Part shown: positions 23,796-54,994 of the stretch, one piece after another | Layout: every line of letters begins with the position of its first letter | Position numbering within the stretch: position 1 is the stretch's first letter | DNA from: Macrostomum lignano | Taxonomy: Eukaryota | Direction of reading: 5' to 3' | NCBI GenBank assembly: GCA_002269645.1 | Contig: NIVC01004173.1 | Location: forward strand, 1-56,770 | DNA: 56,770 nucleotides | Position numbers and translations under genes: made by a program | The notes under the pieces: generated by a model | Told to the model about the DNA's origin: nothing | The model's input: the letters and a program-made list of their open reading frames with translations, nothing else | Database searches by the model: none

Positions 23796-23955
23796 CGATT
23801 AAAATGAGGCTTCAAGCTAATAAGTAGCTGTTGAGAACTTTTTTGATTTTTTATTAGAATTCATTGAAATCCTGAGCATGTCCGGGCGATATGTAGCGAA
23901 ATCGAATAAAATCTAATAAGTGAAATAATTAGTATATTAGAATAATTTGGTAACA

Positions 23956-24253
23956 GGGGGTTATAGCCCAGTGATTAGAGCGTCGGAATTACGATTGAAA
24001 GGTCGGGGGTTCGATTCCCGACCCACTCGGAACAATTTGTGTCCTTGAGCAAGACACTTAACTCTGCATTGCTTCAGTTCACCCAACTGTAAAATGGGTG
24101 CCAGCATTAGCTGGGGTAATTGAGGCTGTGTGTGGCGATCCCCCAGTCCTTGGACTGAACAGCCGTACGCAGCCTTCAGATGCGCCGCGCAATGGCTGCG
24201 GCTGAGCTATCAGTTGCACATCTGGCCCAATTGGGGCAGGTGTAATCAATTAT
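23956..24253 (+). mobile_element. tRNA-derived CORE-type SINE
   Basis: A box TAGCCCAGTGATTAG, B box GGTTCGATTCC; GTGTCCTTGAGCAAGACACTTAAC...CTGTAAAATGGG resembles the MIR CORE; two further copies in the window. Confidence 0.85.
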
Positions 24254-25455: not shown

Positions 25456-25479
25456 CTGAATGCAGACACAGGTGCCCAG

Positions 25480-25670
25480 ACACTGGGGATCTGGGAGCCT
25501 GGCTCAGCAACTGAGGATCTGGGAGGCTGGCCCAGCAACTAAGGATCTGGGAGGCTGACCAGCGACTGGGGATCTGGGAGGCTGGCCCAGCAACTGACAC
25601 TCTGGGAGGCTGGCCCAGTAACTAAGGATCTGGGAGGCTGGCTTCCAAGATCCGGGAGGGTGGCGGCCAT
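25480..25670. repeat. Short array of the 27/28-bp minisatellite family
   Basis: CTGGGAGGCTGGCCCAGCAACT units; ends GGGAGGGTGGCGG like the GPS2 array. Confidence 0.85.
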
Positions 25671-26914: not shown

Positions 26915-28314
26915 CTAAAAGTCAGCCTTAGTATAAGCGACTAAACAGAACTCGCACAGGTCGGCAAGCCTGTTGGCGGCCTCCTCGCTCAGCAGGCAGC
27001 GAAATCGCGGATTGGCCAGCCGGTCTCGGGTCGGCGCCGCGGCAGCCAGGAAGCCCAGGCGGACCAGATCGACCAGGCAGGGCAGGGCGGCGGTGGCGTC
27101 GAAGACCTGCGACTCTCGCGAGATCACCCGACAGATGTTCAGCAGGCGTTCCAGCGGCACCGGTCGGACGGCCAGGGCCTCCATAGCGGCGGCGGCGGCT
27201 ACTGCAGCCGGCTTTTTCTGCTTCTTCCGAGGCTTCTGCCGGCGACCGGAGTTGAAGGCGAACATTCGGCGATCGTGAGAGGGTGGCACGCGAGTGCACA
27301 GGAAGGCGGCCAGAAGGAGGAAGCGGCTGAGCAGCGGCAGGTCGGCAAACTGCTGCTGCTGCTGCTTCACGCCCCCGACGCCAGTCAGCGCAGCCGACGC
27401 GACTGGAGACGTAAGCGGAGTCAGCAGGCCGCGCAGATGGGAGCACAGGATCGCTTTGATCTTGCCGCCACCGCTACTAGCGGAGCAGGCGGACCGGCAG
27501 GAGGCGACGGCCTCAGCGATGAGTGCGGGCTGCCGCGTCATCGGGAAAGCGATGTCGACGGCCATCTGGACGATGGGGTCGCGGTCGCCGCCAGGTAGGC
27601 CAGCTGACACAATGTCCACCAGCTGCGGCTTGGTGTAGGCCGGCAGGTGGAGGCTGCGGGGGCAGATGCGATTTGGGATTTGGGATAGCTGGCTCACCGA
27701 CTGACGATCTGAGATGCTGGCCCAGCAACTGAGGATCTGGGAGGCTGGCCCAGCAACTGGGGATCTGGGAAACTGGCCCCCAGCAACAGAGGATCTGGGA
27801 AACTCGCCCCCAGCAACAAGCAAACAAACCAATAGGCAGAGGCGGCGGCCGCGGCGGCGCAGCCCCTGGCGTAGCTGGTCCAGGGCAGGCGGCCAACCAG
27901 CAGCAGGCGAGCGCCAGTCAGCTGCCGGATTCTCATCAGGGCGGCCAGTATTTTGCCGTCGGCGGACTCGGCCAGACGCTCGGCATCGTCCAGAGCGAGC
28001 CAGTCTCCGGGCCGGAGGCAGCAGCCGAGAGCGCTGGCCCAGTCGTCTGCGGGATCAGGCCTCCTGGAGCAGCCATCCCCGCTGGAAGCCAGGTGAATGA
28101 TGAAGTCTACCAGCTTCCTGACGCTGCCAGCCGACTCGGTGCAGGTGAGCCGCAGGTGAGGCAGGCCGGATAGCGCAGCCTCGGCCAGAAAGGTCTTGCC
28201 GCAGCCCGGCGGGCCCCACAGGTGTACAAAGGACACCGTGGACTCGGGAGGCTGTTCCAGCAATCGGCGAAGCTGAGCAAACTCCACTTCGCGACCAACA
28301 ATGCGAGTTTTTGC
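26915..28314 (-). CDS. ORC5: Origin recognition complex subunit 5; exons 28314-27830 and 27653-26915; ATG exon not found
   Basis: GREVEF...Walker A GPPGCGKT, LALDDAERL; C-terminal LPLLSRFLLLAAFL...DRRMF...PLERLL...LVRLGFL...RFRC matches the ORC5 C-domain; 176-bp phase-2 GT-AG intron containing the minisatellite. Confidence 0.88.
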
Positions 28315-34672: not shown

Positions 34673-35040
34673 ATGCCGTCTCCAGCTGCGCCACTGCTAA
34701 TGCGCCTGCTAGCCTGCTCAGCATCTGCCGCGGTGCGCGCTGGCGCCTATGTCCACGAGGTGATGCGCAGTGGCGAGCTCGGCATCGTCATCAAGGGCCA
34801 CAATGATCTGCAGACGCAGGCAGATCGAGGCGCCCAGCGGCTCATCACGGCCAACCTGCGGGCCGCCTTCCCTGGCCTGACTGTCATCGGCGAGGAGGAG
34901 GAGGACCCTGCAGCGGCGCCGCTTGGCCCTGATGAGATCGTTGAACCTCTGGACGAAGTGCTGCAGCAGTGTCACAGGTGTGCCAGGGCTGAGACTCGTG
35001 GCATTTCTGGACTTAGGGGAACTAACTAACTAACTAACTG

Positions 35041-35088
<48 letters not shown>

Positions 35089-35089
35089 C

Positions 35090-35131
<42 letters not shown>

Positions 35132-35132
35132 G

Positions 35133-35203
<71 letters not shown>

Positions 35204-35215
35204 GACTAACTAACC

Positions 35216-35250
<35 letters not shown>

Positions 35251-35259
35251 CAACTAACC

Positions 35260-35294
<35 letters not shown>

Positions 35295-35336
35295 CAACTA
35301 ACTAACTGACTAACTAACTAACTAACTAACAAACTG

Positions 35337-35383
<47 letters not shown>

Positions 35384-35590
35384 GACTAACTAACTAACTA
35401 ACTAACTAACTGACTGACTAACTAACTGACTAACTAACTAACTGACTAACTAACTGACTAACTAACTAACTAACTAACTGACTAATAACTAACTAACTAA
35501 CTGACTAACTAACTGACTAACTAACTAACTGACTAACTAACTAACTGACTAACTAACTAACTAACTGACTAATAACTAACTAACTAACTG

Positions 35591-35641
<51 letters not shown>

Positions 35642-35667
35642 GACTAACTAACTAACTAACTGACTAA

Positions 35668-35712
<45 letters not shown>

Positions 35713-36817
35713 GATTAACTAACTGATTATCTAACTAACTGAATGACTAACTAAATAACCAACTAAAAGAAATACATAAAAACCAACCCACCCTCTGTGT
35801 ACTGCAGATGCCCCGAAAAAGTACAAAACGTTCGACCCGAAGATCTAACAGTCTGGGTCGATCCACTCGATGGCACATCGGAATTTGCCGACAATCTACT
35901 CGACAATGTCACCGTGCTGATTGGAGTGGCACTGGAAGGTCAAGCTGTTGCCGGGGTGGTGTACCAGCCTTATTATCGCTACCTAACCGACCCCAGTCAG
36001 GCTGGCCGGCTGGTCTGGGGCCTGGACGGTCTGGGCATCTTCGGCATGGGCTCGGACTCGCACCGCCCTCTGCCCACTGGTCGCGTAGTTGTCACCACGC
36101 GCAGTCACGACAGCGATACTGTCACGGCCGCCGTGACTGCCTGCGGTCCTACTCAGGTAGTAGTGCAGTCAGTGTCTCCTCAGCACTGTGTGTTAGGCTC
36201 TCCTTTGCCCTCTGTGTGTGTCACCCTTTGCCCTCTGTGTGTGTTACCCTTTGCCCTCTGTGTGTGTTACCCTTTGCCCTCTGTGTGTGTTACCCTTTAC
36301 CCTCTGTGTGTCACCCTTTGCCCTCTGTGTGTGTTACCCTTTGCCCTCTGTGTGTGTTACCCTTTGCCCTCTGTGTGTGTTACCCTTTGCCCTCTGTGTG
36401 TGTTACCCTTTGCCCTCTGTGTGTGTTACCCTTTGCCCTGTGTGGGCTACCCTCCGCTGTCTCCAGTATTACCCTCTGCCTACCTATCCCTCCGTCGCCA
36501 TCTATAAAACCCAGACCCTCCGAGTCGGAGGCTGCGGCCACAAGGTGCTGCTGCTGCTGGAGCGGCGGGCTCACCTGTACATCTTCGCCTCGGCCGGCTG
36601 CAAGAAGTGGGACACCTGCGCTCCGGAGGCGTTGCTGCGCGCAGCCGGCGGTCGCTTGACCGACATCTTCGGTCGGCAGCTGCGCTACGATCCCGGAGTT
36701 GAACGGCCGAACAACCGCGGCGTCCTGGCGGCGATGCGGGTGGAAGATCATCAGCGCTGCGTCGAGGCCATGCCCGAAGATGTTCGACAGAAGCTTCAGG
36801 GCCCGAAGCAGAGCTGA
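34673..36817 (+). CDS. BPNT1: 3'(2'),5'-bisphosphate nucleotidase 1; exons 34673-34977, 35808-36156, 36515-36817
   Basis: DLQTQADR, VIGEE, VWVDPLDGT, VVTTRSH, LRVGGCGHK, KKWDTCAPEALL; phase-2 and phase-0 GT-AG junctions join in frame. Confidence 0.95.
35021..35765. repeat. (TAAC)n microsatellite filling BPNT1 intron 1
   Basis: Direct reading. Confidence 0.97.
36190..36440. repeat. 23-bp tandem repeat CCTTTGCCCTCTGTGTGTGTTAC in BPNT1 intron 2
   Basis: Units at 36361 and 36384. Confidence 0.92.
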
Positions 36818-36939
36818 TGGCCTGGCTGCATAGTGCAGTGTTTGCGCTGTCTATGGAGCACTCACAGCTTCCAGACATGTGCCACCAGAGTTTTCATTCT
36901 TCTTCATAGTGGGCCTACAGATTAGCTGTTAATGAGTTA

Positions 36940-36956
36940 TTAGTTAGTGGGCTAGC

Positions 36957-36996
<40 letters not shown>

Positions 36997-37027
36997 CAGT
37001 TAGTTAGTCAGTTAGTTAGTTAGTTAA

Positions 37028-37066
<39 letters not shown>

Positions 37067-37067
37067 A

Positions 37068-37114
<47 letters not shown>

Positions 37115-37115
37115 C

Positions 37116-37158
<43 letters not shown>

Positions 37159-37189
37159 CTTAGTTATAGTTAGTTAGTTAGTTAGTTAA

Positions 37190-37226
<37 letters not shown>

Positions 37227-37227
37227 C

Positions 37228-37258
<31 letters not shown>

Positions 37259-37277
37259 CAGTTAGTTAGTTAATTAA

Positions 37278-37310
<33 letters not shown>

Positions 37311-37341
37311 CAGTTAGTTAGTCAGTTAGTTAGTTAGTTAA

Positions 37342-37386
<45 letters not shown>

Positions 37387-37403
37387 CAGTTAGTTAATTA
37401 GTC

Positions 37404-37442
<39 letters not shown>

Positions 37443-37443
37443 C

Positions 37444-37478
<35 letters not shown>

Positions 37479-37479
37479 C

Positions 37480-37534
<55 letters not shown>

Positions 37535-37535
37535 C

Positions 37536-37590
<55 letters not shown>

Positions 37591-37659
37591 CAGTTAGTTA
37601 GTCAGTTAGTTAGTTAGTTAGTTAGTTAATTAGTTAGTTAGTTAGTTAGTTAGTTAGTC

Positions 37660-37690
<31 letters not shown>

Positions 37691-37725
37691 CAGTTAGTTA
37701 GTTAGTCAGTTAGTTAGTTAGTTAG
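36940..37725. repeat. (GTTA)n microsatellite, reverse complement of the intron-1 array
   Basis: Direct reading. Confidence 0.97.
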
Positions 37726-38730: not shown

Positions 38731-39024
38731 ATAATTGATTACACCTGCCATATAGTTGCACAAGGTGTGCAACCGACAGCTCAGCCGCAGCTACATGTAT
38801 TGCACGGTGCATCTGAAGGCAGTGTGCGGCTGTTCGGGGGTCGCCACACCCTCAATTACCCCAGCTAATGCTGGCACCCATTTTACAGCATGGTGAATCG
38901 AAACAGTGCAGAGTTAATTAGTGTCTTGCTCAAGGACAAATTGTTCCAGTGGCTTTGGGAATCGAACCCCTGACTTTCAAATTTTGAGTCCGATGCTCTA
39001 ACGTAAACACTAGGCTACAACCCC
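38731..39024 (-). mobile_element. Full-length CORE-type SINE copy
   Basis: Reverse complement aligns with 23956-24253 (tRNA head, CORE, CAGGTGTAATCAATTAT tail). Confidence 0.85.
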
Positions 39025-39560
39025 CTTTCGCAGTTAGGACACCCAATCACCTATGAAGGCATATACGAACCCCGCCGAATGGTTAGCCCACCGGAGACTC
39101 CCATAGGGACCAAAACTTGAGGTGGCGGCCCGAGATTAGGCCCCTATGGTGGACCAATCCACTATTCTCAGAGGTGTATAGTCCTTGAACGGGCTGATGC
39201 ATGGGTCGTCCAAAAGCGACCTATTGCGCCGTCAGCGACATCAGCTGACAGGCTAAATCGACATTGCGCGCGCCGAATCGCTCTGCCCTACTAGCGCTGC
39301 CATTATTAATTGTTTCAGAAAAATTAGTAGGTCAGCAAGTCCATCTTCTGAAAGTAAAATAATAATGTTTTCGGAAAGATTTAATATTCTATCTACAGTT
39401 AAATCGTGCGCACTCGAGCCTGGAATAAATTTCAAATTATTTAAGATGCCTGACGAATCTGGTGTTATTCGAATCAACAAATTTTAATTACAACAGTCTG
39501 CAACTCAATACTGCGTACTCTGACACAGTATTAAGTTATTTCTAATTCCCCAGGTACAGC

Positions 39561-39620
39561 ACGAGGTTGTGGCGCTTCTAGCTTTGAGTCTGGCTGCTTT
39601 AGTGCAGAGTGCCTTCTCTG
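39561..39620 (+). pseudogene. Inactivated duplicate of the signal-peptide exon
   Basis: Copy of 48603-48660 with ATG changed to ACG and a 2-bp insertion; GTGAGT donor retained. Confidence 0.75.
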
Positions 39621-39720
39621 GTGAGTTTTTAACACAGACATAAGTACAGTCTGACCCACACTGAAACTATAGCTGACCCATATTGGAAAAGCCTGGATTT
39701 AAACTTCTTGAGTTTGTTAG

Positions 39721-40222
39721 AACAGTCCAATCCTTATGATAGCAGTCTGACAACCACTAGAGCAGTCTGACACACACTAGAGCAGTCTGACACACACTAG
39801 AGCAGTCTGACATCCACTAGAGCAGTCTGACACACACTAGAGCAGTCTGACAACCACTAGAGCAGTCTGACAACCACTAGAGCAGTCTGACACACACTAG
39901 AGCAGTCTGACAACCACTAGAGCAGTCTGACACACACTAGAGCAGTCTGACAACCACTAGAGCAGTCTGACAACCACTAGAGCAGTCTGACACACACTAG
40001 AGCAGTCTGACAACCACTAGAGCAGTCTGACACACACTAGAGCAGTCTGACACACACTAGAGCAGTCTGACAACCACTAGAGCAGTCTGACACACACTAG
40101 AACAGTCTGACACACACACTAAAGCAGTCTGACACACACTAGAGCAGTCTGACACACACTAGAGCAGTCTGACACACACTAGAGTAGTCTGACACACACT
40201 AGAGCAGTCTGACACACATACA
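39721..40222. repeat. 20-bp minisatellite AGCAGTCTGACACACACTAG (copy 1)
   Basis: 20-bp periodicity; second array at 48781-49420. Confidence 0.95.
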
Positions 40223-40716
40223 ATCGCGACGAGTCTGCCCATGCTGGGCCAACTACTACCATCTACCAACGTCGAGAGGTCTTCCTTGAGCGTCTCGAGC
40301 AGTACTTCATCTGCAAAGAGGTGAAGGATGAGGCAAATGTGGTTACTCTGATCCAAGGTAGGAACACTTCGTTATATAAGGATCACGTCGATCTGAGAGG
40401 AGGGTTACATCACACTGTGGAGGCTGTGCCAGACAGGCCAAGTGGCGCAGAAGTCTTACGCTGACCTGAGGAAGCTGCTGACAACGCACTTTGCACCAAA
40501 GCTTTCGGAGCTGGCTGCAAGGTTCCGTTTCCAACAACGAACTCAGCAAGCAGGCGAGAGCTTCACTGCATTCATCGCGGGGCTCCAGGCTCTGTCAGCT
40601 GACTGCAACTTCGGTGTGTCTCTAAATGAGCGGCTCCGAGACCAACTTGTGTTCGGCCTTCGAAGTGACGCCTTCCGAGCCAAGCTGCTGGAAGTGGTTG
40701 AGCCGACCTTCGAATC

Positions 40717-43700
40717 TGTGAATTGGCTGTCTTATACCGATTTGAACTATACTGCTTTGTGCGTTTGGCTGCTCAATTTTAGCTTACCACTATAGACCCT
40801 TTCCTCCACTGAACTGATCGATTTCTGTTTATACGTACAGTACTTCTTCGCAATGTACATCGTTCGTCCTAACTACATGTACTCAGTTCTATAATACAAT
40901 ATAAAGGACCAACGCGTCAGTTAAAAAACGCTGTTTACAACTTGCGGCTCAAGCCAATTCAATCGCTTCGTCTCAATCTCAATTCATCACAATGGCGACG
41001 AGGACTTTTGGCCAAATTCCAGAACTTTCAGCTGAATCAGACCTTGAAATCTACGCTGAGCGCATGAACCAATATTTCATATGCAACAAAGTTGAGACTG
41101 CCGAGGCCAAGCGTGCTATCTTTCTTACTGCCATTGGTGAGAAGTACTACAAATTGCTTCGCGACTTGTGTCAGCCACAGAAACTGACTGAAAAATCCTA
41201 CGAAGATCCGCAGGACATACTAAAGAAGCATTGCTCGCCCGAACCTTCGGAGATCGCCGCACGTTTCAAATTTCAGCAACGTCTTCAGCAAGATGGTGAA
41301 TCTTTCGCTAATTTCTTGGCAGGGCTGAAAAATGCTGCAAACCATTGCAAGTTTGGCGAATCCCTTCAGGAGCGACTTCGAGATCAGTTTTTGTTCGGAA
41401 TGAGAAGCGACAATTTCCGCTCTAAGCTACTCGAGAGTTCGGATCATTCGTACGCTGGGCTGATCAAACTGGCCTTGGACCTCGAAGCTGCTCACAAATC
41501 TTCAAGCGAGATGGCGCACACTTCAGAAACCAATCGAGTCAGCGCGAATCCATCAGTGGCACGCCCGAGAGCACAGTACAACATCAGCCAACACTCTGGT
41601 CCCGCTGGATCAGCATCCAAGCCAGGCACCTGCGACAGCTGTGGAGGTCCACATTCGCGTCAGAACTGTAAATTCCGTAACTCGAAATGCCATGCTTGCG
41701 GGAAGGTTGGCCACATTAAGAAGGTTTGCAGGTCAGCAAAATCTGTGAAACTCCTGGAGGAGAATGAAACCGGGTCTCAGTACGACGAAGAAAACTACGA
41801 GGAAGAGCCAATATTTCATGTCTCAATGACTTCCAAGTCCCCGATTCTGGTGCCTCTGCAAATCGAGGAAGTGCAATCTCATTTTGAGCTGGACACAGGA
41901 TCTGCTGTAAGTCTCGTTCCCAAGGCATTCTATGATAGCCATCTGTCTCATCTGCGACTGCATCCGTCCAAGACGACTCTGCGAACCTACACGGACCAGG
42001 AGTTCTCTCCGATCGGAGAAGTAACAGTGAAGGTCACTTACGAAGGGCAGGAAGCTTCTCTGCCGCTACTCGTGGTGTCTGAAGGCAGCGCTCGACTCCT
42101 GGGACGCAACTGGCTAACCGTCATCCGCCTAGACTGGCCTCGCTTGACAGCACCCGTCAACTCGTTGATCGCAGCACCTAATGATATGGCTACTGAGCTG
42201 GTCCGTCAGTTTCCGGATGTCTTCGCCGAGGGTCTCGGTAAGTATCGCCTCAGTGAAGTCGACCTTCATTTACAAGAAAATGCTACGCCAAGGTTTTACA
42301 AGGCGCGACCGATTCCCTATGCTCTGCGTGAGACCGTCGATTTAGAGCTTCAGCGCATGGAATCAGAAGGGGTCATCACTCCAATAGCGACTTCTCAATG
42401 GGCTGCCCCGATTGTGCCAGTAGTAAAGAAGGACGGGTCTGTACGAATCTGCGGAGATTACAAGTGCACATTCAACCAGGTCGCAAAGCAAGAGCACTAC
42501 CCGCTGCCGAGGATCGAAGATTTATTTGCGAGACTGGGTGGCGGCCACAAATGGAGCAAACTCGACCTGGCAAAGGCATTTCTGCAGCTCCCAATATCAG
42601 AAGACAGCAAACAGTACCTCGTTATCAACACTCAACGTGGACTGTTCAAGGTGAACCGCCTGCCATTCGGTATCTGCTCGGCCAGTGCAATTTTTCAACG
42701 CATCCTTGACAGTCTGCTCGGGCATCTCAACGGCGTCCAGGTTTATCAGGACGACATCCTGGTTACCGGGTCTTCACTGGCGGCTCACAAAGAAAATCTG
42801 CTGCAAGTCCTGCACAAGCTTCAAGAGGCCGGACTGCGTCTCAACGTCGCCAAGTGTGCTTTCTTCCAAGACTCCATCGACTATCTGGGCCACCGAATTG
42901 ACCAACACGGGCTGCGGCCGCTCGAGAGCAAGGTCGACGCCGTTCAGAACGCGCCGGCTCCGAAAGACGTATCTCAGCTGCGATCCTATCTGGGAATGCT
43001 GACGCATTACGCCAAGTTTCTTCCCAATTTGGCATCAGTCGTGGCGCCGCTTAATCAGCTCTTGTCGAAGGGCGTCAGCTGGCTTTGGAGCGACCGCGAG
43101 AACGAAGCCTTCCAAGCATCGAAGCGAATGCTGCTCGAATCAAAAGCTCTGATGCACTTTGACCCAAATCTGCCGATTCGTCTCGAGTGCGACGCTTCCG
43201 CGTACGGCATTGGCGTGGTTCTCAGTCACCGGGTGGGCGGTCAGGATCACGCGATCGCATTTGCTAGCAAGTCGCTGACTTCAGCCCAGCGAAACTATTC
43301 TCAGCTGGATAAGGAGGCACTAGCCATAATCTACGGTGTCCAACGCTTCCATCAATTCCTCTATGGTCGGCACTTTACGATTGTCACTGACCATCAGCCT
43401 CTGCTGGGATTGCTGGGCCCAGACAAAGAGATTCCGACACGTGCGGCTGCCAGGATGCAGCGATGGGCCATCCGTCTATCTGGATACCGGTACGCCATGG
43501 AGTTCAGGCCCACCCAGAAGCACAGCAATTGCGACTCTCTTTCTCGATTGCCTCTAAAAGGAAACTTTATTGAAGAAGAGGCGGTGCACTCGCTCACGCT
43601 CGAGGAGGACTCTTCCATTGCTGTGACTGCGGCTTTGGTCGCCAAAGCAACTCTGGCTGACCCTATACTGTCCAAGCTGCTTCGCCTTCTGCAATCCGGA

Positions 43701-45564
43701 GAGCGACTATCCGGCAAAGAATTTCCAGAGTTCGCTCATCAGCAAAACGAGATGACCATCGAAGCCGGCTGCTTACTCTGGGGGACTCGCGTTATAATCC
43801 CGGAGTCCCTGCGCAAGGCCGTCCTACAGGAACTCCATTTGGCTCACACCGGTGCCAGTCGCATGAAAGCCCTGGCACGCAGTTTTGTTTGGTGGCCAGG
43901 GCTGGACAAGGACTTGGAGCAGTTGGCTAGAACATGCGAAACCTGCAAGGCTCACCAGTCTGATCCAGCCAAAGCTCCGGTGCATCCTTGGATATTTCCC
44001 AGCGAACCTTGGAGCAGAATTCACTTGGACTTTGCTGGTCCTGTTAATGGGCGAGTCTACCTGGTCATCACGGACGCTCACAGCAAATGGCCCGAGGTTC
44101 GTCTAGTCAAGGATACTTCAGCAGACAGCACCATCGCACATCTCTGTGAAATCTTCAGCCGTCTGGGCCTACCAAGAATTATTGTCTCCGACAACGGGCC
44201 TCAATTCATTTCCAGGGAATTCGCGAGCTTTACACGCAGCAACGGCATTCGGCATGTCACGTCAGCGCCTTACCATCCTGCTACAAACGGTCAAGCTGAA
44301 AAATTTGTACAAACACTGAAGCTGCACATCAGGAAATCCGGTCACTCCGCCGCTGCTTTGCAACGCTTTCTCTTCGCCTACAGGGTAACGCCGCATTCGA
44401 CTACAGGCACCTCTCCCAGCGAACTGCTTCTGGGACGTCGGCTGCGCTCCAGACTGGACCTTCTGCGGCCATCTCTAGTAGACCAAGTGTGCGATCGGCA
44501 AGAGGCTGCCGCTGAGTCCCAGCGCCGCACCCGGTTCTTCGGGGTCGGCGACAATGTTCGAGTGAAAGGATTCGGCAAGGAATCCGGCTGGCTGCCTGGA
44601 GTGGTCGTCGCGGCGTCGCAACGGAACTACGATGTTCGAGTTGGCACCAGCATCGTCCGGCGGCACGTTGACCAGATGCTGCCTGGTTCGGCGCAGCCTC
44701 CGCCATCCGCCGCTGACTCTCAACACCTCGGCACCAGCATCTCGACTCCATCGTCGGCGCCTCCGGCTCTAGATGTTCTGAGCCCCGCGGCTGTCTCCGA
44801 GCCCGCTATCCAGCCACCATCGGAGGAAAGAGCCGCGGTCCCCGCAGGCCCGGCAGACAAGGCGGCAGCCGCGGACGCGGACGTACCTGACCAGTTGCCA
44901 GAGGGTGCGACCCGACGATACCCGCCTCGAATTCGGTCATGTCCAGAGCGACTTCAAGTGGGGGTGTGATGAGTGACTGTGCGGAAGCTGACAATGATCT
45001 TGAACTGACTTTTCGCAAATTCTCCTGTCTTTCATGCAACCCATTATTACGTATGTTTCTCCAATACAAATTATTGATTCACTACTAATTCTAGTTTTCG
45101 ACAATGCAATATTTCGCTATTTTGTTCGACACAATTTTATTTCCTTACTTTTTATCTGCTCTGCAATTGTGTTTGCTAATTCGATTGTTTTCCAATACTA
45201 CAATACTACATGTACGCTATCGTCGATTCGCTTTTCGTAAAAATTCATCTCATTGATCCCACTTCCCCTTGGGGAGGGAAGTGTGAATTGGCTGTCTTAT
45301 ACCGATTTGAACTATACGAGCGTACTGCTTTGTGCGTTTGGCTGCTCAATTTTAGCTTACCACTATAGACCCTTTCCTCCACTGAACTGATCGATTTCTG
45401 TTTATACGTACAGTACTTCTTCGCAATGTACATCGTTCGTCCTAACTACATGTACTCAGTTCTATAATACAATATAAAGGACCAACGCGTCAGTTAAAAA
45501 ACGCTGTTTACAACTTGCGGCTCAAGCCAATTCAATCGCTTCGTCTCAATCTCAATTCATCACA
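40717..45564 (+). mobile_element. Element A: intact Gypsy LTR retrotransposon (Mag-like); LTRs 40717-40991 and 45282-45564
   Basis: TG...CA LTRs, identical by eye except an 8-bp indel; GAATC TSD at 40712-40716 and 45565-45569; PBS-like TGGCGACGAG at 40993; PPT GGGGAGGGAAG. Confidence 0.97.
40992..44969 (+). CDS. Single-ORF Gag-Pol polyprotein (1325 aa)
   Basis: CX2CX3HX4C plus CX2CX4HX4C knuckles, LDTGS protease, YQDD RT, CDAS RNase H, HHCC plus DDE integrase in Gypsy order; no stops. Confidence 0.97.
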   Translation: MATRTFGQIPELSAESDLEIYAERMNQYFICNKVETAEAKRAIFLTAIGEKYYKLLRDLCQPQKLTEKSYEDPQDILKKHCSPEPSEIAARFKFQQRLQQDGESFANFLAGLKNAANHCKFGESLQERLRDQFLFGMRSDNFRSKLLESSDHSYAGLIKLALDLEAAHKSSSEMAHTSETNRVSANPSVARPRAQYNISQHSGPAGSASKPGTCDSCGGPHSRQNCKFRNSKCHACGKVGHIKKVCRSAKSVKLLEENETGSQYDEENYEEEPIFHVSMTSKSPILVPLQIEEVQSHFELDTGSAVSLVPKAFYDSHLSHLRLHPSKTTLRTYTDQEFSPIGEVTVKVTYEGQEASLPLLVVSEGSARLLGRNWLTVIRLDWPRLTAPVNSLIAAPNDMATELVRQFPDVFAEGLGKYRLSEVDLHLQENATPRFYKARPIPYALRETVDLELQRMESEGVITPIATSQWAAPIVPVVKKDGSVRICGDYKCTFNQVAKQEHYPLPRIEDLFARLGGGHKWSKLDLAKAFLQLPISEDSKQYLVINTQRGLFKVNRLPFGICSASAIFQRILDSLLGHLNGVQVYQDDILVTGSSLAAHKENLLQVLHKLQEAGLRLNVAKCAFFQDSIDYLGHRIDQHGLRPLESKVDAVQNAPAPKDVSQLRSYLGMLTHYAKFLPNLASVVAPLNQLLSKGVSWLWSDRENEAFQASKRMLLESKALMHFDPNLPIRLECDASAYGIGVVLSHRVGGQDHAIAFASKSLTSAQRNYSQLDKEALAIIYGVQRFHQFLYGRHFTIVTDHQPLLGLLGPDKEIPTRAAARMQRWAIRLSGYRYAMEFRPTQKHSNCDSLSRLPLKGNFIEEEAVHSLTLEEDSSIAVTAALVAKATLADPILSKLLRLLQSGERLSGKEFPEFAHQQNEMTIEAGCLLWGTRVIIPESLRKAVLQELHLAHTGASRMKALARSFVWWPGLDKDLEQLARTCETCKAHQSDPAKAPVHPWIFPSEPWSRIHLDFAGPVNGRVYLVITDAHSKWPEVRLVKDTSADSTIAHLCEIFSRLGLPRIIVSDNGPQFISREFASFTRSNGIRHVTSAPYHPATNGQAEKFVQTLKLHIRKSGHSAAALQRFLFAYRVTPHSTTGTSPSELLLGRRLRSRLDLLRPSLVDQVCDRQEAAAESQRRTRFFGVGDNVRVKGFGKESGWLPGVVVAASQRNYDVRVGTSIVRRHVDQMLPGSAQPPPSAADSQHLGTSISTPSSAPPALDVLSPAAVSEPAIQPPSEERAAVPAGPADKAAAADADVPDQLPEGATRRYPPRIRSCPERLQVGV

Positions 45565-48500
45565 GAATCCCTGCAAGAGAAGGCGATGTCGCTGGAGTCA
45601 GCTGAGCGTTCGTCCCTGGAGATGGCACAAAAGGCAACACCGCAGTCTGCGGCCAATCTGCAATTTTTCGGCAAGAGAGAAAGCCGCAAGCAGGCGACAT
45701 CAGCGCACCACAGAGGGCATCGGTTCAGCGGTGGCAACCCCGGCAGCGGCAACGGCGGCTGCGGCAACGGCGGCTGCGGCAACGGCTGCGGCAACGGCGG
45801 CAGCGGTATCGGCGGCAGCGGCATCGGCGGCAGCGGCAGGTCCTCTGCCCAAGATCGAGGACCTGTTTGCCAAGCTGGGAGGCGGCTGCAAGTGGACAAA
45901 GCTCGATCTGTCCAATGCCTTCCTGCAGCTTCCGCTCGCCGAAGTCAGCAAAGCCTTCGTCACGATCAACACGCCAAAGGGACTCTACCAGTTCAATCGC
46001 ATGCCTTTTGGCATCAAGTGCGCCACTGCGATCTTCCAACGGACGATGGACACTCTGTTAGGAGGTCTCGACTCTGTCCAGGTGTTTGTCGATGACATCC
46101 TGGTCACCAGCAAGACGATGCAGCAACATAAGAAAAACCTGGAAGAAGTTCTGCAGCGCCTCCTTGAGTCGGGACTCAGGCTGAACAAGCAAAAGAGCCC
46201 GTTCTTCACGGACTCTGTCGAGTATCTGGGCTACCGCATTGACGCATGTGGACTCAGCCCGCTGACGGACAGGGTGGCCGCAATTCAAGACGCCCCGGCG
46301 CCGAAGGACATCAGCCAGCTGCGCTCGTTCCTCGGCATGCTGACTCAGTACGGCCGGTTCCTGCCTAACCTGTCCACCGTAGTAGCGCCGCTCAATCAGC
46401 TGCTGGACAAGGACGTTCGCTGGACGTGGGACAAGCCGCAGCAAACCGCCTTAAGCTAAGCGTCTGCTGCTCCATTCACCGGTGCTTGTGCACTTCAACC
46501 CGGATATGCCGCTGCGGCTCGAGTGTGACGCTTCACCATACGGAGTGGGCGTGGTGTTGTCCCATCGCATCAACAACAAAGACTGCGCAGTGGCATTCGC
46601 TAGCCGCACCCTGAACGCAGCACAGCGGGGCTACTCGCAGCTCGACAAGGAAGCGCTGGCCATAATGTTCGGGCTGCACCGCTTCCATCAATTCCTCTAC
46701 GGCCGGAGATTCACGATAGTCACTGATCACCTGCCGCTACTCGGGTTACTGGGCGAGCGGAAAGGCATCCCGGCACACGCTGCAGCCCGCATGCAGCGGT
46801 GGGCGATCCGGCTGGCGAGCCATGACTACACGCTAGAGTTTGAGCCGACGGAGAAGCACGCCAACTGCGACTCGCTGTCCCGGCTGCCATTGCCGCAGCA
46901 GTTCGAGGAGGAGACAGCGGTTAACTCGCTGCTGATGGACGAGGGCGCAGGTTCGGCCGCCACTGCAGCGACGGTGGCGCGGCTCACCAGGACGGATGCG
47001 GTGCTAGGTCGCGTGCTGCGCTGCCCGCAGACGGGTTCGACTATCTGCGCCGACCTGACCGACTTCGCCAGGCGCCAGAGCGAGCTGTCCATTGACCAGG
47101 GCTGCGTGCTGTGGGGCGTTCGAGTTGTGGTGCCAGCCGCCCTGCGATAACAAGTGTTGAACGAGCCGCACCAAGCCCACCCTGGCATCAGCCGCATGCG
47201 CGCCCTCGCGAGAAGCTACGTCTGGTGGCCAAGTATTGACAAAGACCTGGAGGCCGCAGTAAAAGCCTGTCGCACCTGCCAGCTCAATCAGGCGGATCCA
47301 TCCAAGGCCCCGGTGCAGCCATGGCCATTCCCGACTGAGCCATGGGAGCGGTTGCACATCGACTTCGCGGGACCCGTGGAAGGCCGCACTTACCTGGTCC
47401 TGGTCGACGCGCACAGCAAGTGGCCAGAGGTGCACAGGATGAGCAGCACCACTGCAACTGCGACGATCAGCTGCCTGGGAGAAATCTTCGCTCGTCTCGG
47501 CCTACCGAGAAGCTTGGTGTCGGACAACGGGCCACAATTCGCTTCGGCCGAGTTCGCTGAGTTCGTCAGTTCCAACGGCATCCGGCACATCTTCTCGGCG
47601 TCATTCCACCCGGCGACCAATGGCCAGGCCGAGCGCTTCGTCCAGGTGCTGAAGCGGCATTTGAGTAAGTGCGGTCACCCCGATGAGCAACTTCAACGAC
47701 TGCTGATGGCCTACCGCAACACTCCGCACAGCGTCAGTGGCACCGCGCCGAGTCAGCTGCTCATTGGCCGCCAGCTGCGCAGCCGGCTGGATCTCCTGAC
47801 ACCATCGTTGACTTCGGCCACGCAACAGCGACATCAGCTTCAGCAGCAGCGGCCAGTGCGCCAGTTCCAGCCTGGAGATCGCGTGCTCTACCGCGATTTC
47901 AGCACTGCTGCTCGTGCAGGAGAAAGCAGTCGCTGGGCCGAAGGTGTCATTGTCAATGCCGGCACTCGCAACTGCACAGTCGATTCCGGACGCGGCGTAC
48001 AAGCGCGACACGCTGACCAGCTGCTGTCGGCTCCCGCTGGGTTGGCCGAATCGAACAGCAGCACAGCCCCGGCCGAGGACTGCGCGGCACCTGACGCTGG
48101 CGGCACGTCGGCCTCGCCGCAGGCAGACACTGCTGACGCTGCTAACGAGTATCCCGGCGCTACCCGAATCGAGTTCGAGCACCACCTGACAGATTGATGC
48201 TGCAGTGAGGGCGTTAACTAAGGGGGAGGTGTGACATCGTGACACGTTGAACTTTGTTATGGGTTGCATGCACTGAAGTGTTGACTCACGGCGATTGCTA
48301 TTGACCAGCTTAATGATTTGAATGGTATTGTATTCAACACCCACCCCATGCGCACGCTTGAATTTGTCTGCAGCCACCACCTCATTGCTAACTAATAAGT
48401 ATTGTCAGCCTAGCTCTCAGCCTTTCTCACTCCTGCAATTATACACTACTGCCTCAGTTACAATATTAAAGATATCGCAAAAAGTATATTAATAAAATTG

Positions 48501-48780
48501 GCACCTTGAATCGTTGATCCTCGCTGACTACTTCGGAGTTTATTGATCAAATTCTAGTACTCTGACACAGTATTGAGTTATTTCTAATTCCCCAGTTACA
48601 GCATGAGGTTGGCGCTTCTAGCTTTGAGTCTGGCGGCTTTAGTGCAGTGTGCCTTCTCTGGTGAGTTTTTAACACAGACATTAGTACAGTCTGACCCACA
48701 CTGAAATTATAGCTGACCCATATTGGAAAAGCCTGGATTTAAACTTCTTGAGTTTGTTAGAACAGTCCAATCCTTATGAT

Positions 48781-49420
48781 AGCAGTCTGACAACCACTAG
48801 AGCAGTCTGACAAACACTAGAGCAGTCTGACACACACTAGAGCAGTCTGACAACCACTAGAGCAGTCTGACACACACTAGAGCAGTCTGACACACACTAG
48901 AGCAGTCTGACAACCACTAGAGCAGTCTGACACACACTAGAGCAGTCTGACACACACTAGAGCAGTCTGACACACACTAGAGCAGTCTGACACACACTAG
49001 AGCAGTCTGACAAACACTAGAGCAGTCTGACACACACTAGAGCAGTCTGACAACCACTAGAGCAGTCTGACACACACTAGAGCAGTCTGACACACACTAG
49101 AGCAGTCTGACATTCACTAGAGCAGTCTGACACACACTAGAGCAGTCTGACAACCACTAGAGCAGTCTGACAACCACTAGAGCAGTCTGACACACACTAG
49201 AGCAGTCTGACAACCACTAGAGCAGTCTGACAACCACTAGAGCAGTCTGACACACACTAGAGCACTCTGACACACACTAGAGCAGTCTGACACACACTAG
49301 AGCAGTCTGACACACACTAGAGCAGTCTGACACACACTAGAGCAGTCTGACACACACTAGAGCAGTCTGACACACACTAGAGTAGTCTGACACACACTAG
49401 AGCAGTCTGACACACATACA
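48781..49420. repeat. 20-bp minisatellite (copy 2)
   Basis: Same unit as 39721-40222, longer array. Confidence 0.95.
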
Positions 49421-51279
49421 ATGGCGACGAGTCTGCCCATGCTGGGCCAACTACTACCATCTACCAACGTCGAGAGGTCTTCCTTGAGCGTCTCGAGCAG
49501 TACTTCATCTGCAAAGAGGTGAAGGATGAGGCAAATGTGGTTACTCTGATCCAAGGTAGGAACACTTCATTATATAAGGATCACGTCGATCTGAGAGGAG
49601 GCTTACATCACACTGTTGAGGCTGTGCCAGACAGGCCAAGTGCCGCAGAAGTCTTACGCTGACCTGAGGAAGCTGCTGACAACACACTTTGCACCAAAGC
49701 TTTCGGAGCTGGCTGCGAGGTTCCGTTTCCAACAACGAACTCAGCAAGCAGGCGAGAGCTTCACTGCATTCATCGCGGGGCTCCAGGCTCTGTCAGCTGA
49801 CTGCAACTTCAGTGTGTCGCTAAATGAGCGGCTCCGAGACCAACTTGTGTTCGGCCTTCGAAGTGACGCCTTCCGAGCCAAGCTGCTGGAAGTGGTTGAG
49901 CCGACCTTCGAATCCCTGCAAGAGAAGGCGATGTCGCTGGAGTCAGCTGAGCATTCGTCCCTGGAGATGGCACAAAAGGCAACACCGCAGTCTGCGGCCA
50001 ATCTGCAATTTTTCGGCAAGAGAGGAAGCCGCAAGCAGGCGACATCAGCGCACCACAGAGGGAATCGGTTCAGCGGTGGCAACCCCGGCAGCGGCAACGG
50101 CGGCTGCGGCAACGGCGGCTGCGGCAACGGCGGCTGCGGCAACGGCGGCTGCGGCAACGGCGGCTGCGGCCACGGCGGCTGCGGCAACGGCGGCTGCGGC
50201 AACGGCGGCTGCGGCAACGGCGGCAGCGGCAACGGCGGCTGCGGCAACGGCGGCTGCGGCAACGGCGGCTGCGGCAACGGCGGCTGCGGCAACGGCGGCT
50301 GCGGCAACGGTGGCAGCGGCAACGGCGGCTGCGGCAACGGCGGCTGCGGCAACGGCGGCAGCGGCAACGGCGGCAGCGGCAACGGCGGCAGCGGCAGGTC
50401 CTCTGCCCAAGATCGAGGACCTGTTTGCCAAGCTGGGAGGCGGCTGCAAGTGGACAAAGCTCGATCTGTCCAATGCCTTCCTGCAGCTTCCGCTCGCCGA
50501 AGTCAGCAAAGCCTTCGTCACGATCAACACGCCAAAGGGACTCTACCAGTTCAATCGCATGCCTTTTGGCATCAAGTGCGCCACTGCGATCTTCCAACGG
50601 ACGATGGACACTCTGTTAGGAGGTCTCGACTCTGTCCAGGTGTTTGTCGATGACATCCTGGTCACCAGCAAGACGATGCAGCAACATAAGAAAAACCTGG
50701 AAGAAGTTCTGCAGCGCCTCCTTGAGTCGGGACTCAGGCTGAACAAGCAAAAGAGCCCGTTCTTCACGGACTCTGTCGAGTATCTGGGCTACCGCATTGA
50801 CGCATGTGGACTCAGCCCGCTGACGGACAGGGTGGCCGCAATTCAAGACGCCCCGGCGCCGAAGGACATCAGCCAGCTGCGCTCGTTCCTCGGCATGCTG
50901 ACTCAGTACGGCCGGTTCCTGCCTAACCTGTCCACCGTAGTAGCGCCGCTCAATCAGCTGCTGGACAAGGACGTTCGCTGGACGTGGGACAAGCCGCAGC
51001 AAACCGCCTTAAGCTAAGCGTCTGCTGCTCCATTCACCGGTGCTTGTGCACTTCAACCCGGATCTGCCGCTGCGGCTCGAGTGTGACGCTTCACTATACG
51101 GAGTGGGTGTGGTGTTGTCCCATCGCATCAACAACAAAGACTGCGCAGTGGCATTCGCTAGCCGCACCCTGAACGCAGCACAGCGGGGCTACTCGCAGCT
51201 CGACAAGGAAGCGCTGGCCATAATGTTCGGGCTGCACCGCTTCCATCAATTCCTCTACGGCCGGAGATTCACGATAGTC
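49421..51279 (+). mobile_element. Element B copy 2 (no element A; truncated in RNase H; expanded 15-bp repeat at ~50082-50397)
   Basis: Near-identical to 40223-40716 plus 45570-46720; empty GAATC site at ~49910; shares the same RT stop. Confidence 0.92.
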
Positions 51280-52129
51280 CGTGTCCGTGACGACGGATCT
51301 TACCAGTGTCTGGCCGGGAATAAGCTGGGCGTGGCCGCTTCGAACCTAACGGTAAGTTTGGAAAATTGGAAATTTCATTAATAGGTCGACAAGTAAACCG
51401 TAAGCGATCCCATCAGATCCTCAGGTTAATCATCCCAGGATCCTCGAGGTTATTCCTTCCAGGATTTCGTACTATATATTCTCATTATTCCCATTTTTAT
51501 TCTCTAACTAATTCCCAATCAATGCCTGCAGTTCCTTCGCCCTGCCATGCTGGGCCAGTTTCTTCAAGAGCCGAGTGCCACGGTGCGGCGGCGGCTTGGA
51601 AGTCGGCTGGCATTGCCCTGCGTGCCGCCCATAAATTTCCCCGACGCCCCGGTAGTCTGGCATCGGATTGCAGATGCGGACGGCGCCCAGCCGATGGTGA
51701 TTCAACGGTCTAATCGAATCAACATCGACCCGTGAATGGCAACCTGCTGTTTTCTAACATTCACCTGTCCGACAAGGCAACCTACCGATGCAGCGTGGAG
51801 AACAGGATTCTTAGACGGGCTGTTCAAGGTCGAAGCTACCGGCTGGATGTGATCAAAGGCATCACATAGGCTGCTGCTCAGCTCATGGCGCAGAAACCCT
51901 CTTTTATAACTGCTCTCGCGAACAGAACTCTCGATTTGTTTTGCTTCTTCTCCGGCTTCCCGACGCCCAGCATCCAGTGGAAGAAGGATTCGACTGAGGT
52001 CTCTTCGGGGGAGCGGCTGCAACTGCTGGACTCTGGCGCCCGCCTGCGGCTCATCGATATTGACCCGGATTATCACGCTGGTGAGCTCGCCGCGGCCAGC
52101 TCTGCTGCCCCATCCTCGAGCTGGAGCGC

Positions 52130-52670
52130 TCCCAGATCCTCGGTTGCTGGGCCAGCCTCCCAGATCCTCGGTTGCTGGGCCAGCCTCCCAGATCCTCAGT
52201 TGCTGGGCCAGCCTCCCAGATCCTCGGTTGCTGGGCCAGCCTCCCAGATCCCCAGTTACTAGGCTAGCCTCCCAGATCCCCAGTTACTAAGCCAGCCTCC
52301 CAGATCCCCAGTTACTAAGCCAGCCTCCCAGATCCCCAGTTACTAGGCCAGCCTCCCAGATCCCCAGTTACTAGGCCAGCCTCTCAGATCCCCAGTTACT
52401 AGGCGAGCCTCCCAGATCCCCAGTTACTAGGCCAGCCTCCCAGATCCCCAGTTACTAGGCCAGCCTCTCAGATCCCCAGTTACTAGGCCAGCCTCCCAGA
52501 TCCCCAGTTACTAGGCCAGCCTCCCAGATCCCCAGTTACTAGGCCAGCCTCTCAGATCCCCAGTTACTAGGCCAGCCTCCCAGATCCCCAGTTACTAGGC
52601 CAGCCTCCCAGATCCCCAGTTACTAGGCCAGCCTCCCAGATCCCCAGTTACTAGGCGAGCCTCCCAGATC
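52130..52670. repeat. 28-bp minisatellite family array in the Ig-gene intron
   Basis: CCCAGATCCCCAGTTACTAGGCCAGCCT units. Confidence 0.93.
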
Positions 52671-54994
52671 GTCAGGTGCCGGGCCCCGCCAGCCCAAATC
52701 CTCAGCATGGACTACTGCAGCAAGACACTGCACTCGATTTTCTTAGAAAACATCCGGAGGCCGGCAAGGAACGCCTATTTGTCCCATCGCCAGTGCATTT
52801 AGTATTGCGCCTCCGCCAGATTCTCGCAGTTGCTCCCAGGTCCATCGCCCAGTCAAGTGCCCTTACCCAGAATCGCTACAACTACCTCCATAAAATTGAG
52901 TCGCCATAAAATCCCCAACCCTTTTGTCACGGCAACCGCAGGTGTTTACCAGTGCACCGGCGCCAATGAGGGAGGCTTCAACGACGCCGGCACCTACCGC
53001 GTACGAGTGGCCAGCGAGCCCTACTGGATTCAGAAGCCAGCTGACGTCTCCGTGCCCGAAGGCGGCAGCCACACGTTCCGCTGCGAGGCTGGCGCCGCGC
53101 CCGGCGACCCGAAGTGGCTCATCAACGGTGTACCGGTCAGCGGGTCCGACAGCCGCTTCTCCCCGGTCGGCAGTGAGTTTCAGTTTAGCAATCTCACGGT
53201 GAGAGACTCGCTCGTGGTGCAGTGCAATGTCAGCAATAGGTATGGATACGTATTCACCAATGCCTACCTGAGTGTGCTGCCGCCGTCAGCCACTTCGGAC
53301 ACAAAAGTGCCATGGTTCACTATTAAGTACTACTGGCTACTGTTGAATTACTTCGCCACAGTGTTTATCCCTTAAGCTGGATGCTGGTTGTTGCCTTCTA
53401 ATCAATTGTGATTTGTGATATGCGTATTTTTAAGCATGAATTAGCGCTGACATCTAAAGTAGCGATTTTTTGTTCAACACTTTGGAAATTATAATTTTAA
53501 TTCATGAGTCGAAATTATTATTATTTCAAATTTACAATTTCGATAAAAACTACAAATTAATTTTATCGCGACTTACAATTGGCGATGAGTAAAAAGATGA
53601 ACAAATTAAAATATTTCATAACCAAAAGATTACAGTTTTGATAAGTTATTAATCGCAATTAATATGCTCGTTTTTTAAGTAATATCGTTTCTAATTAAAG
53701 AAATTTATAAATATAAATTTGATAGATTTTTTATTTAGTTATAAATATGGAATACAGAATCCCGAGTTTTGCCAATCCCGAGATCCCGACGAATTGGACC
53801 GGGATCCCGGGATCCCGCGGGATCTCGAAAAGGTTTCTCACTTTTGTTGGTGCAATTTTGGTTTACAAAGCTATCTAATCTGATTTTAAAGGGCTTTCAA
53901 TGATAAAGTACAGCAGAATAAAATATTTTGCAAGCAAGAAACTGGCGGTGAGTTCTGAATTGGAGTGTGATGTACAGGCTGGCGTAATGGACGTGCTTTT
54001 TTACATGCCGGTATCAGCTCAGGAAAATCAAATTTGATTGTGATGTAACCTGGGGAATGATAGCTTTCAGAACTATGGCGCGAGGTACTGATACCAGGTT
54101 AGAAGGGATCAGAACTGACCCTCCGAGGGCACCCGCTTTAGATGGAGAACTGGTTGTGATCCGATAGCAAAGTCCCGACTCCCACTGTTCTAATCACAAC
54201 TACGGCCTGGAGTTTTAAAGGTAGGGACTGCTTAAAGTAGTTCTGCCACCAACCCAATTCTGGGCATCTAAGGGGTGCCTTGACAGTGCTAAGAATGAGG
54301 TCTTTCGCATAGGGGGCTTCTGATCTGCGCAAGGTCGAGACTCGAGACTTCCTGACTTTAGCTGGGTTTGGGATAGAGAGAGAGCTCAAATGAACAATGA
54401 TTTGACTTGGAATTGTTTGTTCGTTTACTTGGCCTTTTTAGCGCCACCTAAATGTTCAATAAATATGTGTGTATGCATCGGATAATATTCCTTACTGAAA
54501 GTTTTGTAGCTAAATATGCACTAAAACAATTCGAGATTTTATCTTTATGCATGGTTAAAATATAAACGTGCTATTAAAACTCGGCATTATCGAATTGGGT
54601 GTCAGTATAAATCTTTGCTTGTTTATTTTATAAATTTGTCGCTAACTAGTTTTTCATTCATTTAATTACAATCCAGCGGCGCCAAAATGTGTGCTGGGGG
54701 TGCCAAAATCACTGCCAAAAGGTTTGACAACTTTCTACTTGCCTATACTTTGTCCCAAAATTCATTCCTAGTCACGCGAGATGCATGAATTTAACCATCA
54801 GTTGGTCAGTCGTGTATTTGTCCAGCATTGAATATCACAGAGAGGCAAACAAACAATGCTGCATTGAAATCCTATTCCTAGCTATTAAATATCAAGAAAA
54901 ATCACGTGGCTTGTACTGTGCTCAATTCATAGCCTCACATAAAACGCGTTAAAATCTCCTGCCAAATTCATAACTCGCGAATCTGCCAAGAATT

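Follow-up and report, generated by a model that had tools for sequence, protein, structure and literature searches.

The signal-peptide exon that lies between two tandem retroelement copies in the DNA analyzed here (the window, a stretch of 56,770 nucleotides whose encoded proteins matched Macrostomum lignano best in protein searches) is likely to have reached its position through a local tandem duplication at the DNA level rather than by being captured into a mobile LTR. It probably represents the native first coding exon of the adjacent, broken neuroglian-like gene, and we are highly confident of the core claim that combines a native exon, a local event and no capture. The evidence was drawn from the window itself, from protein searches, and from contigs of four of the 24 listed runs (X1, X2, X7 and X11), which were aligned to positions 45850-48780. 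These runs belong to four different studies, X11 being RNA by guess; the best DNA run may be the source of the assembly, and three studies remain even then.

From left to right, the locus consists of a first exon block, a 20-bp array, a first copy of retroelement B (B1) in which element A is nested, the B LTR, a second exon block, a second array, a second copy of B (B2), and Ig exons (Table 1). B2 is joined without a gap to the second half of an Ig exon at 51280. The features that the initial annotation had read from this region, namely the PPT, the TGTGAC at 48230 directly behind it, the CCCCAG acceptor, the ATG exon at 48603-48660, the GTGAGT, and the array ending in CATACA at the PBS of B2, were all confirmed. 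Its further statement that the same exon-minisatellite-PBS block precedes B1 in an inactivated form was also borne out, with the ATG lost, two bases inserted in the exon and the PBS mutated.

Table 1. Features of the duplicated locus, with positions numbered from the first base of the window
Feature	Position	Strand	Remarks
Inverted repeat with 12-bp arms, across the left edge of the duplicated block	39502..39537		11/12 in copy 1, 12/12 against copy 2
Exon block copy 1: acceptor, inactivated signal-peptide exon 39554-39620, start of intron 1	39515..39740	+	222/229 identical to copy 2
20-bp minisatellite copy 1, abutting the PBS of B1	39741..40222	+	array 39741-40218, 23.8 units
B1: decayed Ty3/Gypsy internal region without 5' LTR, interrupted by A	40223..48229	+	PPT 48220-48229
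Element A: complete Ty3/Gypsy element in the gag of B1	40717..45564	+	LTRs 40717-40991 and 45282-45564; target duplication GAATC
3' LTR of B, about 250 bp	48230..48479	+	right end putative, from contig depth, loose ends and the P0129 fit
77-bp locus-specific flank, LTR to exon block	48480..48556	+	putative host DNA; contig depth
Exon block copy 2: acceptor 48590-48595, exon 48596-48660 with open signal-peptide frame, donor GTGAGT, start of intron 1	48557..48780	+	11/19 to neuroglian signal peptide
20-bp minisatellite copy 2, ending in CATACA at the PBS of B2	48781..49420	+	array 48781-49416, 31.8 units
B2: lesions as in B1, cut off inside RNase H	49421..51279	+	sequence comparison
Remainder of neuroglian-like pseudogene	51280..53375	+	end of Ig1 51280-51351; Ig2-Ig3 51532-52080; Ig3 end-Ig4 and hydrophobic tail ~52935-53375

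The intact exon encodes MRLALLALSLAALVQCAFS plus one G. The block of copy 1 begins sharply at 39515, and the 222 identical positions come from an alignment of 229 bases with 48557-48785. Both 20-bp arrays end in CATACA immediately before the PBS/start codon. Acceptor, donor and the array-bearing intron are all retained around the exon, and the intron loss that would be the sign of an RNA intermediate was not seen.

Comparison with M. lignano neuroglian (P0001, PAA80574.1; the cluster member P0006 carries the name Neuroglian in UniRef) indicated where the exon comes from. P0001 starts with MRLVLVTLQLAALLQYANT and P0002 with MRLILATLLMAALLQYANT, to which the exon peptide is identical at 11/19 and 10/19 positions, respectively; the best 19-mer elsewhere in either protein reached 6/19. 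These matches were attained by 5 and 46 of 200,000 shuffles, and by 538 and 3073 of 200,000 in a stricter shuffle confined to the core. Residue 20 is V in both proteins, which fits the terminal G of the exon. The Ig exons, 2.6 kb downstream of the exon, showed 64%, 60%, 31% and 77% identity to P0001 in four blocks, so that the exon sits upstream of the very gene it resembles. The homologous signal peptide and Ig1-Ig4 domains place the gene in the neuroglian/L1 family.

The gene at the locus differs from neuroglian: it is a diverged paralog whose sequence closes with a hydrophobic tail behind Ig4, and it has suffered a deletion, a frameshift and a stop. Neuroglian/L1 proteins possess further Ig and FnIII domains, a membrane span and a cytoplasmic tail, as does P0001; none of these was found in the paralog, and no cognate match to P0001 beyond residue 430 was present in the window, the frame ending after Ig4. 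Residues 26-97 of P0001 likewise had no cognate match in the window, as expected if the joint between B2 and Ig1 is a deletion. The frameshift lies near 51730 and the stop near 51867. The idea that the downstream frameshift rescues splicing of the exon to the next acceptor was rejected, since that frame stops after 79 residues. The gene is a pseudogene, and no functional product is predicted from the locus. An intact paralog of the Ig gene was looked for and none was found: among 577 candidate proteins of 257-2000 aa there were two matches, both full neuroglians, and among 19 candidates of 80-256 aa there were none, which is weak evidence for the lack of an intact copy. A search with the exon frame against 1.84 billion representatives returned one match, which involved a region of a repeat protein distant from its start and was rejected as chance. 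The short hydrophobic tail after Ig4 could point to a four-Ig form that was once GPI-anchored, an arrangement that we take to resemble insect hemolin.

Pfam searches found RT, RNase H and integrase in Gypsy order in both A and B1. Element A has LTR ends TG..CA, a PBS, a PPT and a target duplication, and B has a PBS, a PPT and an LTR start, in keeping with Ty3/Gypsy elements; the integrase of B shares 92% identity with a protein of M. lignano. Their similarity to K02A2.6-like proteins and the serine-tRNA-type PBS are, we assume, leads to the Mag clade, for which A and B are candidates only. The LTRs of A are identical at 275/275 bases and differ only by an 8-base indel, the corresponding site in B2 is empty, and a single open ORF of 1325 aa runs from 40992, the exact protein of which was not found in the protein collection. 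Element A is a very young insertion, present in B1 only, that arrived after the duplication. The domain order of A and B is that of the M. lignano Ty3/Mdg4 (Gypsy) families, which account for 129 of the 137 consensus families and include 78 Mag families, according to the available part of the repeat study PMC12801592. The canonical heat-shock element pattern given in that part is absent from the LTRs of A and B, and six short A/B motifs were not found in five of five of its supplement files, where the consensus sequences are apparently those of six curated families only.

The two copies of B share their damage. When compared with P0009 and P0129, both B1 and B2 change frame within gag and again between RT and RNase H, both lack the protease region and the beginning of RT owing to a gap, and in both the array is joined to the PBS. 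These shared lesions indicate that the duplication took place after decay, at the DNA level. Over B1, B2 and the exon block, 23 of 1845 compared bases differ (1.2%).

At the edge of the shared deletion, gag contains a GGCAAC/GGC repeat, of about 7 units in B1 (45733-45838) and 21 in B2 (50078-50396). The proteins P0008, P0128, P0129 and P0130 represent B-family copies in which gag, protease and integrase still share a single frame but RT and RNase H are missing, and joints from 46536/46566 to ~47550 in the aligned contigs correspond to an internal deletion; such internally deleted copies are possibly a non-autonomous lineage.

In order to place the right end of the B LTR, the B-family protein P0129 (PAA75747.1, a partial gene model) and contig depth were used. 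P0129 reads ASLNKVIT before MATSLP, and the array reads LEQSDTHT. The last five codons before its start codon need 8 base changes to fit the array or an end at 48569, as compared with 3 at 48465-48479, where the fit is better than at any other of the 27 CA-ending positions (6 changes at the runner-up); this fit is moderate evidence, depends on one gene model, is equaled with 3 or fewer changes at 58 of 56,755 window positions, and rises to 8 changes for the full 8 codons without gaps. Summed contig depth, which is a rough reading and no copy number, was 17.7, 7.5, 13.0 and 1.5x that of the junction contig in bin 48398-48495 (X1, X2, X7 and X11, respectively) and 1.29, 1.26, 1.48 and 1.14x in bin 48496-48593, for which the locus together with copy 1 predicts 1.38. 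The implied depth edge falls within 48418-48493 in X1, X2 and X7, its place varying with the plateau assumed, and X11 hardly shows the step. The bins internal to B were at least 4.6-6.6x higher than the depth just 5' of the exon block. Taken together, these two comparisons suggest that the 3' LTR of B would end at 48479, with a length of 250 bp against 283 for that of A, and be followed by the locus-specific flank. The initial annotation had proposed CTAGTACTCTGACACA (to 48569) as the LTR end, a placement that disagrees with the single-locus depth of bin 48496-48593 in all four runs and with the better fit of the P0129 codons at 48465-48479. No significant likeness was found between the LTRs of A and B (184 of 300 shuffles as good).

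The presumed LTR end had also been said to resemble both the minisatellite unit and the sequence at which the duplication starts. The first likeness was upheld, at 13/20. The second, a 13/13 match of GTACTCTGACACA to the start at 39515, does not count as independent evidence because this 13-mer is itself the first 13 bases of the duplicated block. Decayed array units were detected around the exon at 39488 (14/20), 39641 (15/20) and 48681 (16/20), and none of 54,619 background positions reached 14/20. With the LTR end placed at 48479, GTACTCTGACACA would not be LTR sequence, and it is probably one of several such decayed units. The initial annotation had offered, as one of two readings, a recombination driven by microhomology that put the host exon under an LTR promoter. 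As a local recombination that left the exon downstream of an LTR, this reading is correct in outline, but microhomology at the LTR end lost its support because the LTR would end about 77-90 bases earlier.

The order of events that we consider moderately probable, judged from the arrangement of the sequences, would begin with the insertion of the Ty3/Gypsy element B, in sense, into intron 1 behind its minisatellite. Element B would then have decayed, and a deletion would have removed the rest of the intron together with the 5' LTR, so that the array came to abut the PBS. In a third step, a head-to-tail duplication of 9 kb (4.2 kb before A was present) may have copied the exon, the array, B, its 3' LTR and the 77-bp flank, creating a new joint at 48556/48557. 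Finally, A would have inserted into B1, and a deletion would have fused the RNase H of B2 to the Ig1 exon. The outcome of this last stage can be seen directly, as B2 is joined to the middle of the Ig1 exon and A is present only in B1. The true 5' LTR has perhaps left nothing but its last 3-4 bases, and its almost complete loss is the reason why the exon looks LTR-like. The decayed array unit at 39488 suggests that the DNA left of copy 1 is native. A similarity between 39380-39514 and 48440-48556 that had been spotted by eye was not significant (121 of 300 shuffles as good), and a longer comparison was marginal (8 of 300 shuffles).

The main alternative, again a local history, which we consider unlikely though worth weighing, is that B inserted upstream of the exon, its LTR lying natively 116 bp before the exon, and that a duplication linked the array of the intron to the PBS and so produced a tandem unit consisting of B, LTR, flank, exon and array, which unequal exchange raised to three units before deletions trimmed both ends. 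The inverted repeat at the left edge, which is perfect against copy 2 and resembles a fold-back repair footprint, suggests that the edge at 39515 and not the 48556/48557 joint is the new junction, which speaks against the preferred order of events. Divergence is also higher in the exon block (7/229) than it is in B (16/1616; Fisher p 0.018), as later exchange within the array would give, and this excess is not predicted by a single duplication; divergence also differs between the gag and RT of the B copies (p 0.02). However, insertion upstream requires an additional event as well as deletions that trim the two ends, and to the left of the 39515 edge there is a decayed array unit. Moreover, the window holds 34 such inverted-repeat sites, giving a chance of about 2% at a given point, and the folding energy is ordinary (z -0.48). 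The intron-1 insertion that we prefer and this upstream insertion are both local histories without capture.

The other reading in the initial annotation, that B captured the host first exon and its array into a composite LTR of 1.19 kb (48230-49420) that is carried to other loci, is very unlikely. The block does have the outline of a long LTR, starting with TG behind the PPT and ending with CA before an intact PBS. Depth in the exon bin 48594-48691 was 3.9, 2.8, 1.6 and 2.5x the junction depth (X1, X2, X7 and X11), above two local copies in three of the four runs, and that in bin 48692-48780 was 1.95 (X1), 2.06 (X2), 5.78 (X7) and 0.99 (X11), the X1 and X2 values matching two local copies, in exon bins that overlapping contigs and array-like units can inflate; one or two further copies of the exon may exist elsewhere. 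The contig listing behind these values left out 185 loose ends and 658 pieces. Nevertheless, the exon lies at its parental neuroglian-like gene with acceptor, donor and intron kept, and neither copy of B is a whole unit, B1 having no LTR part on its left and B2 no PPT or 3' LTR. In all four runs the flank just before the exon has the depth of one locus, and P0129 has a different sequence before its start codon, which indicates that the exon is not B-family-wide. Ordinary short LTRs in other B copies, which the initial annotation had named as evidence against capture, are indicated indirectly. There is likewise only a slight chance that the locus is a snapshot of the birth of a composite LTR, in which the middle B of a three-unit array, with one such block on either side and copied in trans by active relatives, could spread the secretory exon and a promoter to a small number of other loci. 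If the composite block occurred at other loci with target duplications of its own, it would be an LTR element distributing a promoter and a signal-peptide exon, a route to new secreted proteins.

LTR, flank and exon were bridged across 48479-48557 by single contigs in all four runs (X1 48323-48646, X2 48309-48665, X7 48327-48706 and X11 48369-48638, with 0, 0, 2 and 3 differences, respectively), and the junction tested is no assembly artefact. That the tandem layout as a whole is an artefact of assembly, a concern raised by the initial annotation and favored by the repeat-rich region, by bridging at one of four junctions and by the lack of a piece spanning the whole stretch among the contigs listed, is extremely unlikely given that bridging and the differences between the copies in bases, in array length and unit order, and in the presence of A with its target duplication.

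The locus was also compared with two known systems. Shared-LTR tandem retrotransposons, as described in the portion of McGurk and Barbash 2018 (PMC5932611) available to us, have an internal-LTR-internal layout, arise by LTR-LTR recombination and are open to unequal exchange. The present locus is like them in its head-to-tail arrangement with one LTR between two copies, but 941 bases of host DNA (48480-49420), comprising the flank, exon block and array, follow the LTR and there is no second LTR at the locus; therefore, LTR-LTR recombination alone cannot make it. In LTR-mediated retroposition, according to the portion available of Tan et al. 2016 (PMC5131818), part of the internal ORFs gives way to sequence copied from mRNA, and the joints show microsimilarity. 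The locus shares with these cases host gene sequence between pieces of an LTR element; it differs in that the exon still has intron sequence on its flanks, is not within the ORFs, and is at its own gene instead of inside an element away from the parental gene. The 13-mer that was put forward as microhomology at the LTR end opens the duplicated block, and the depth and P0129 data would place it outside the LTR. The portions seen of the literature on host exons inside LTRs and on M. lignano minisatellites yielded nothing on this locus. On the reading preferred here, the locus records an ordinary series of events, in which a gene copy in a flatworm genome rich in repeats was destroyed by nested insertion, duplication and deletion. 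It calls for caution, as what looks like a long LTR may be host DNA that happens to lie between a PPT and a PBS.

Several other repeats were noted in the window. A dispersed 127-base repeat, SINE-like by eye, occurs at 38900-39027 and 23955-24075, 78% alike and on opposite strands. Related arrays of 28- and 54-bp units, found on both strands at 9489-10481, 21421-23191, 25474-25642, 27676-27818 and 52129-52670, form a dispersed minisatellite family, the last of which sits in an intron of the neuroglian paralog. Two 28-bp arrays (9430-9960 and 10190-10530) with identical flanks, in a protein-kinase-like gene on the minus strand (8747-10919), reflect a small local duplication. An AACT array (35020-35766) and an AGTT array (36935-37725), about 750-790 bases each, make up a long inverted pair that encloses exons of a gene that is presumably inositol-monophosphatase-like.
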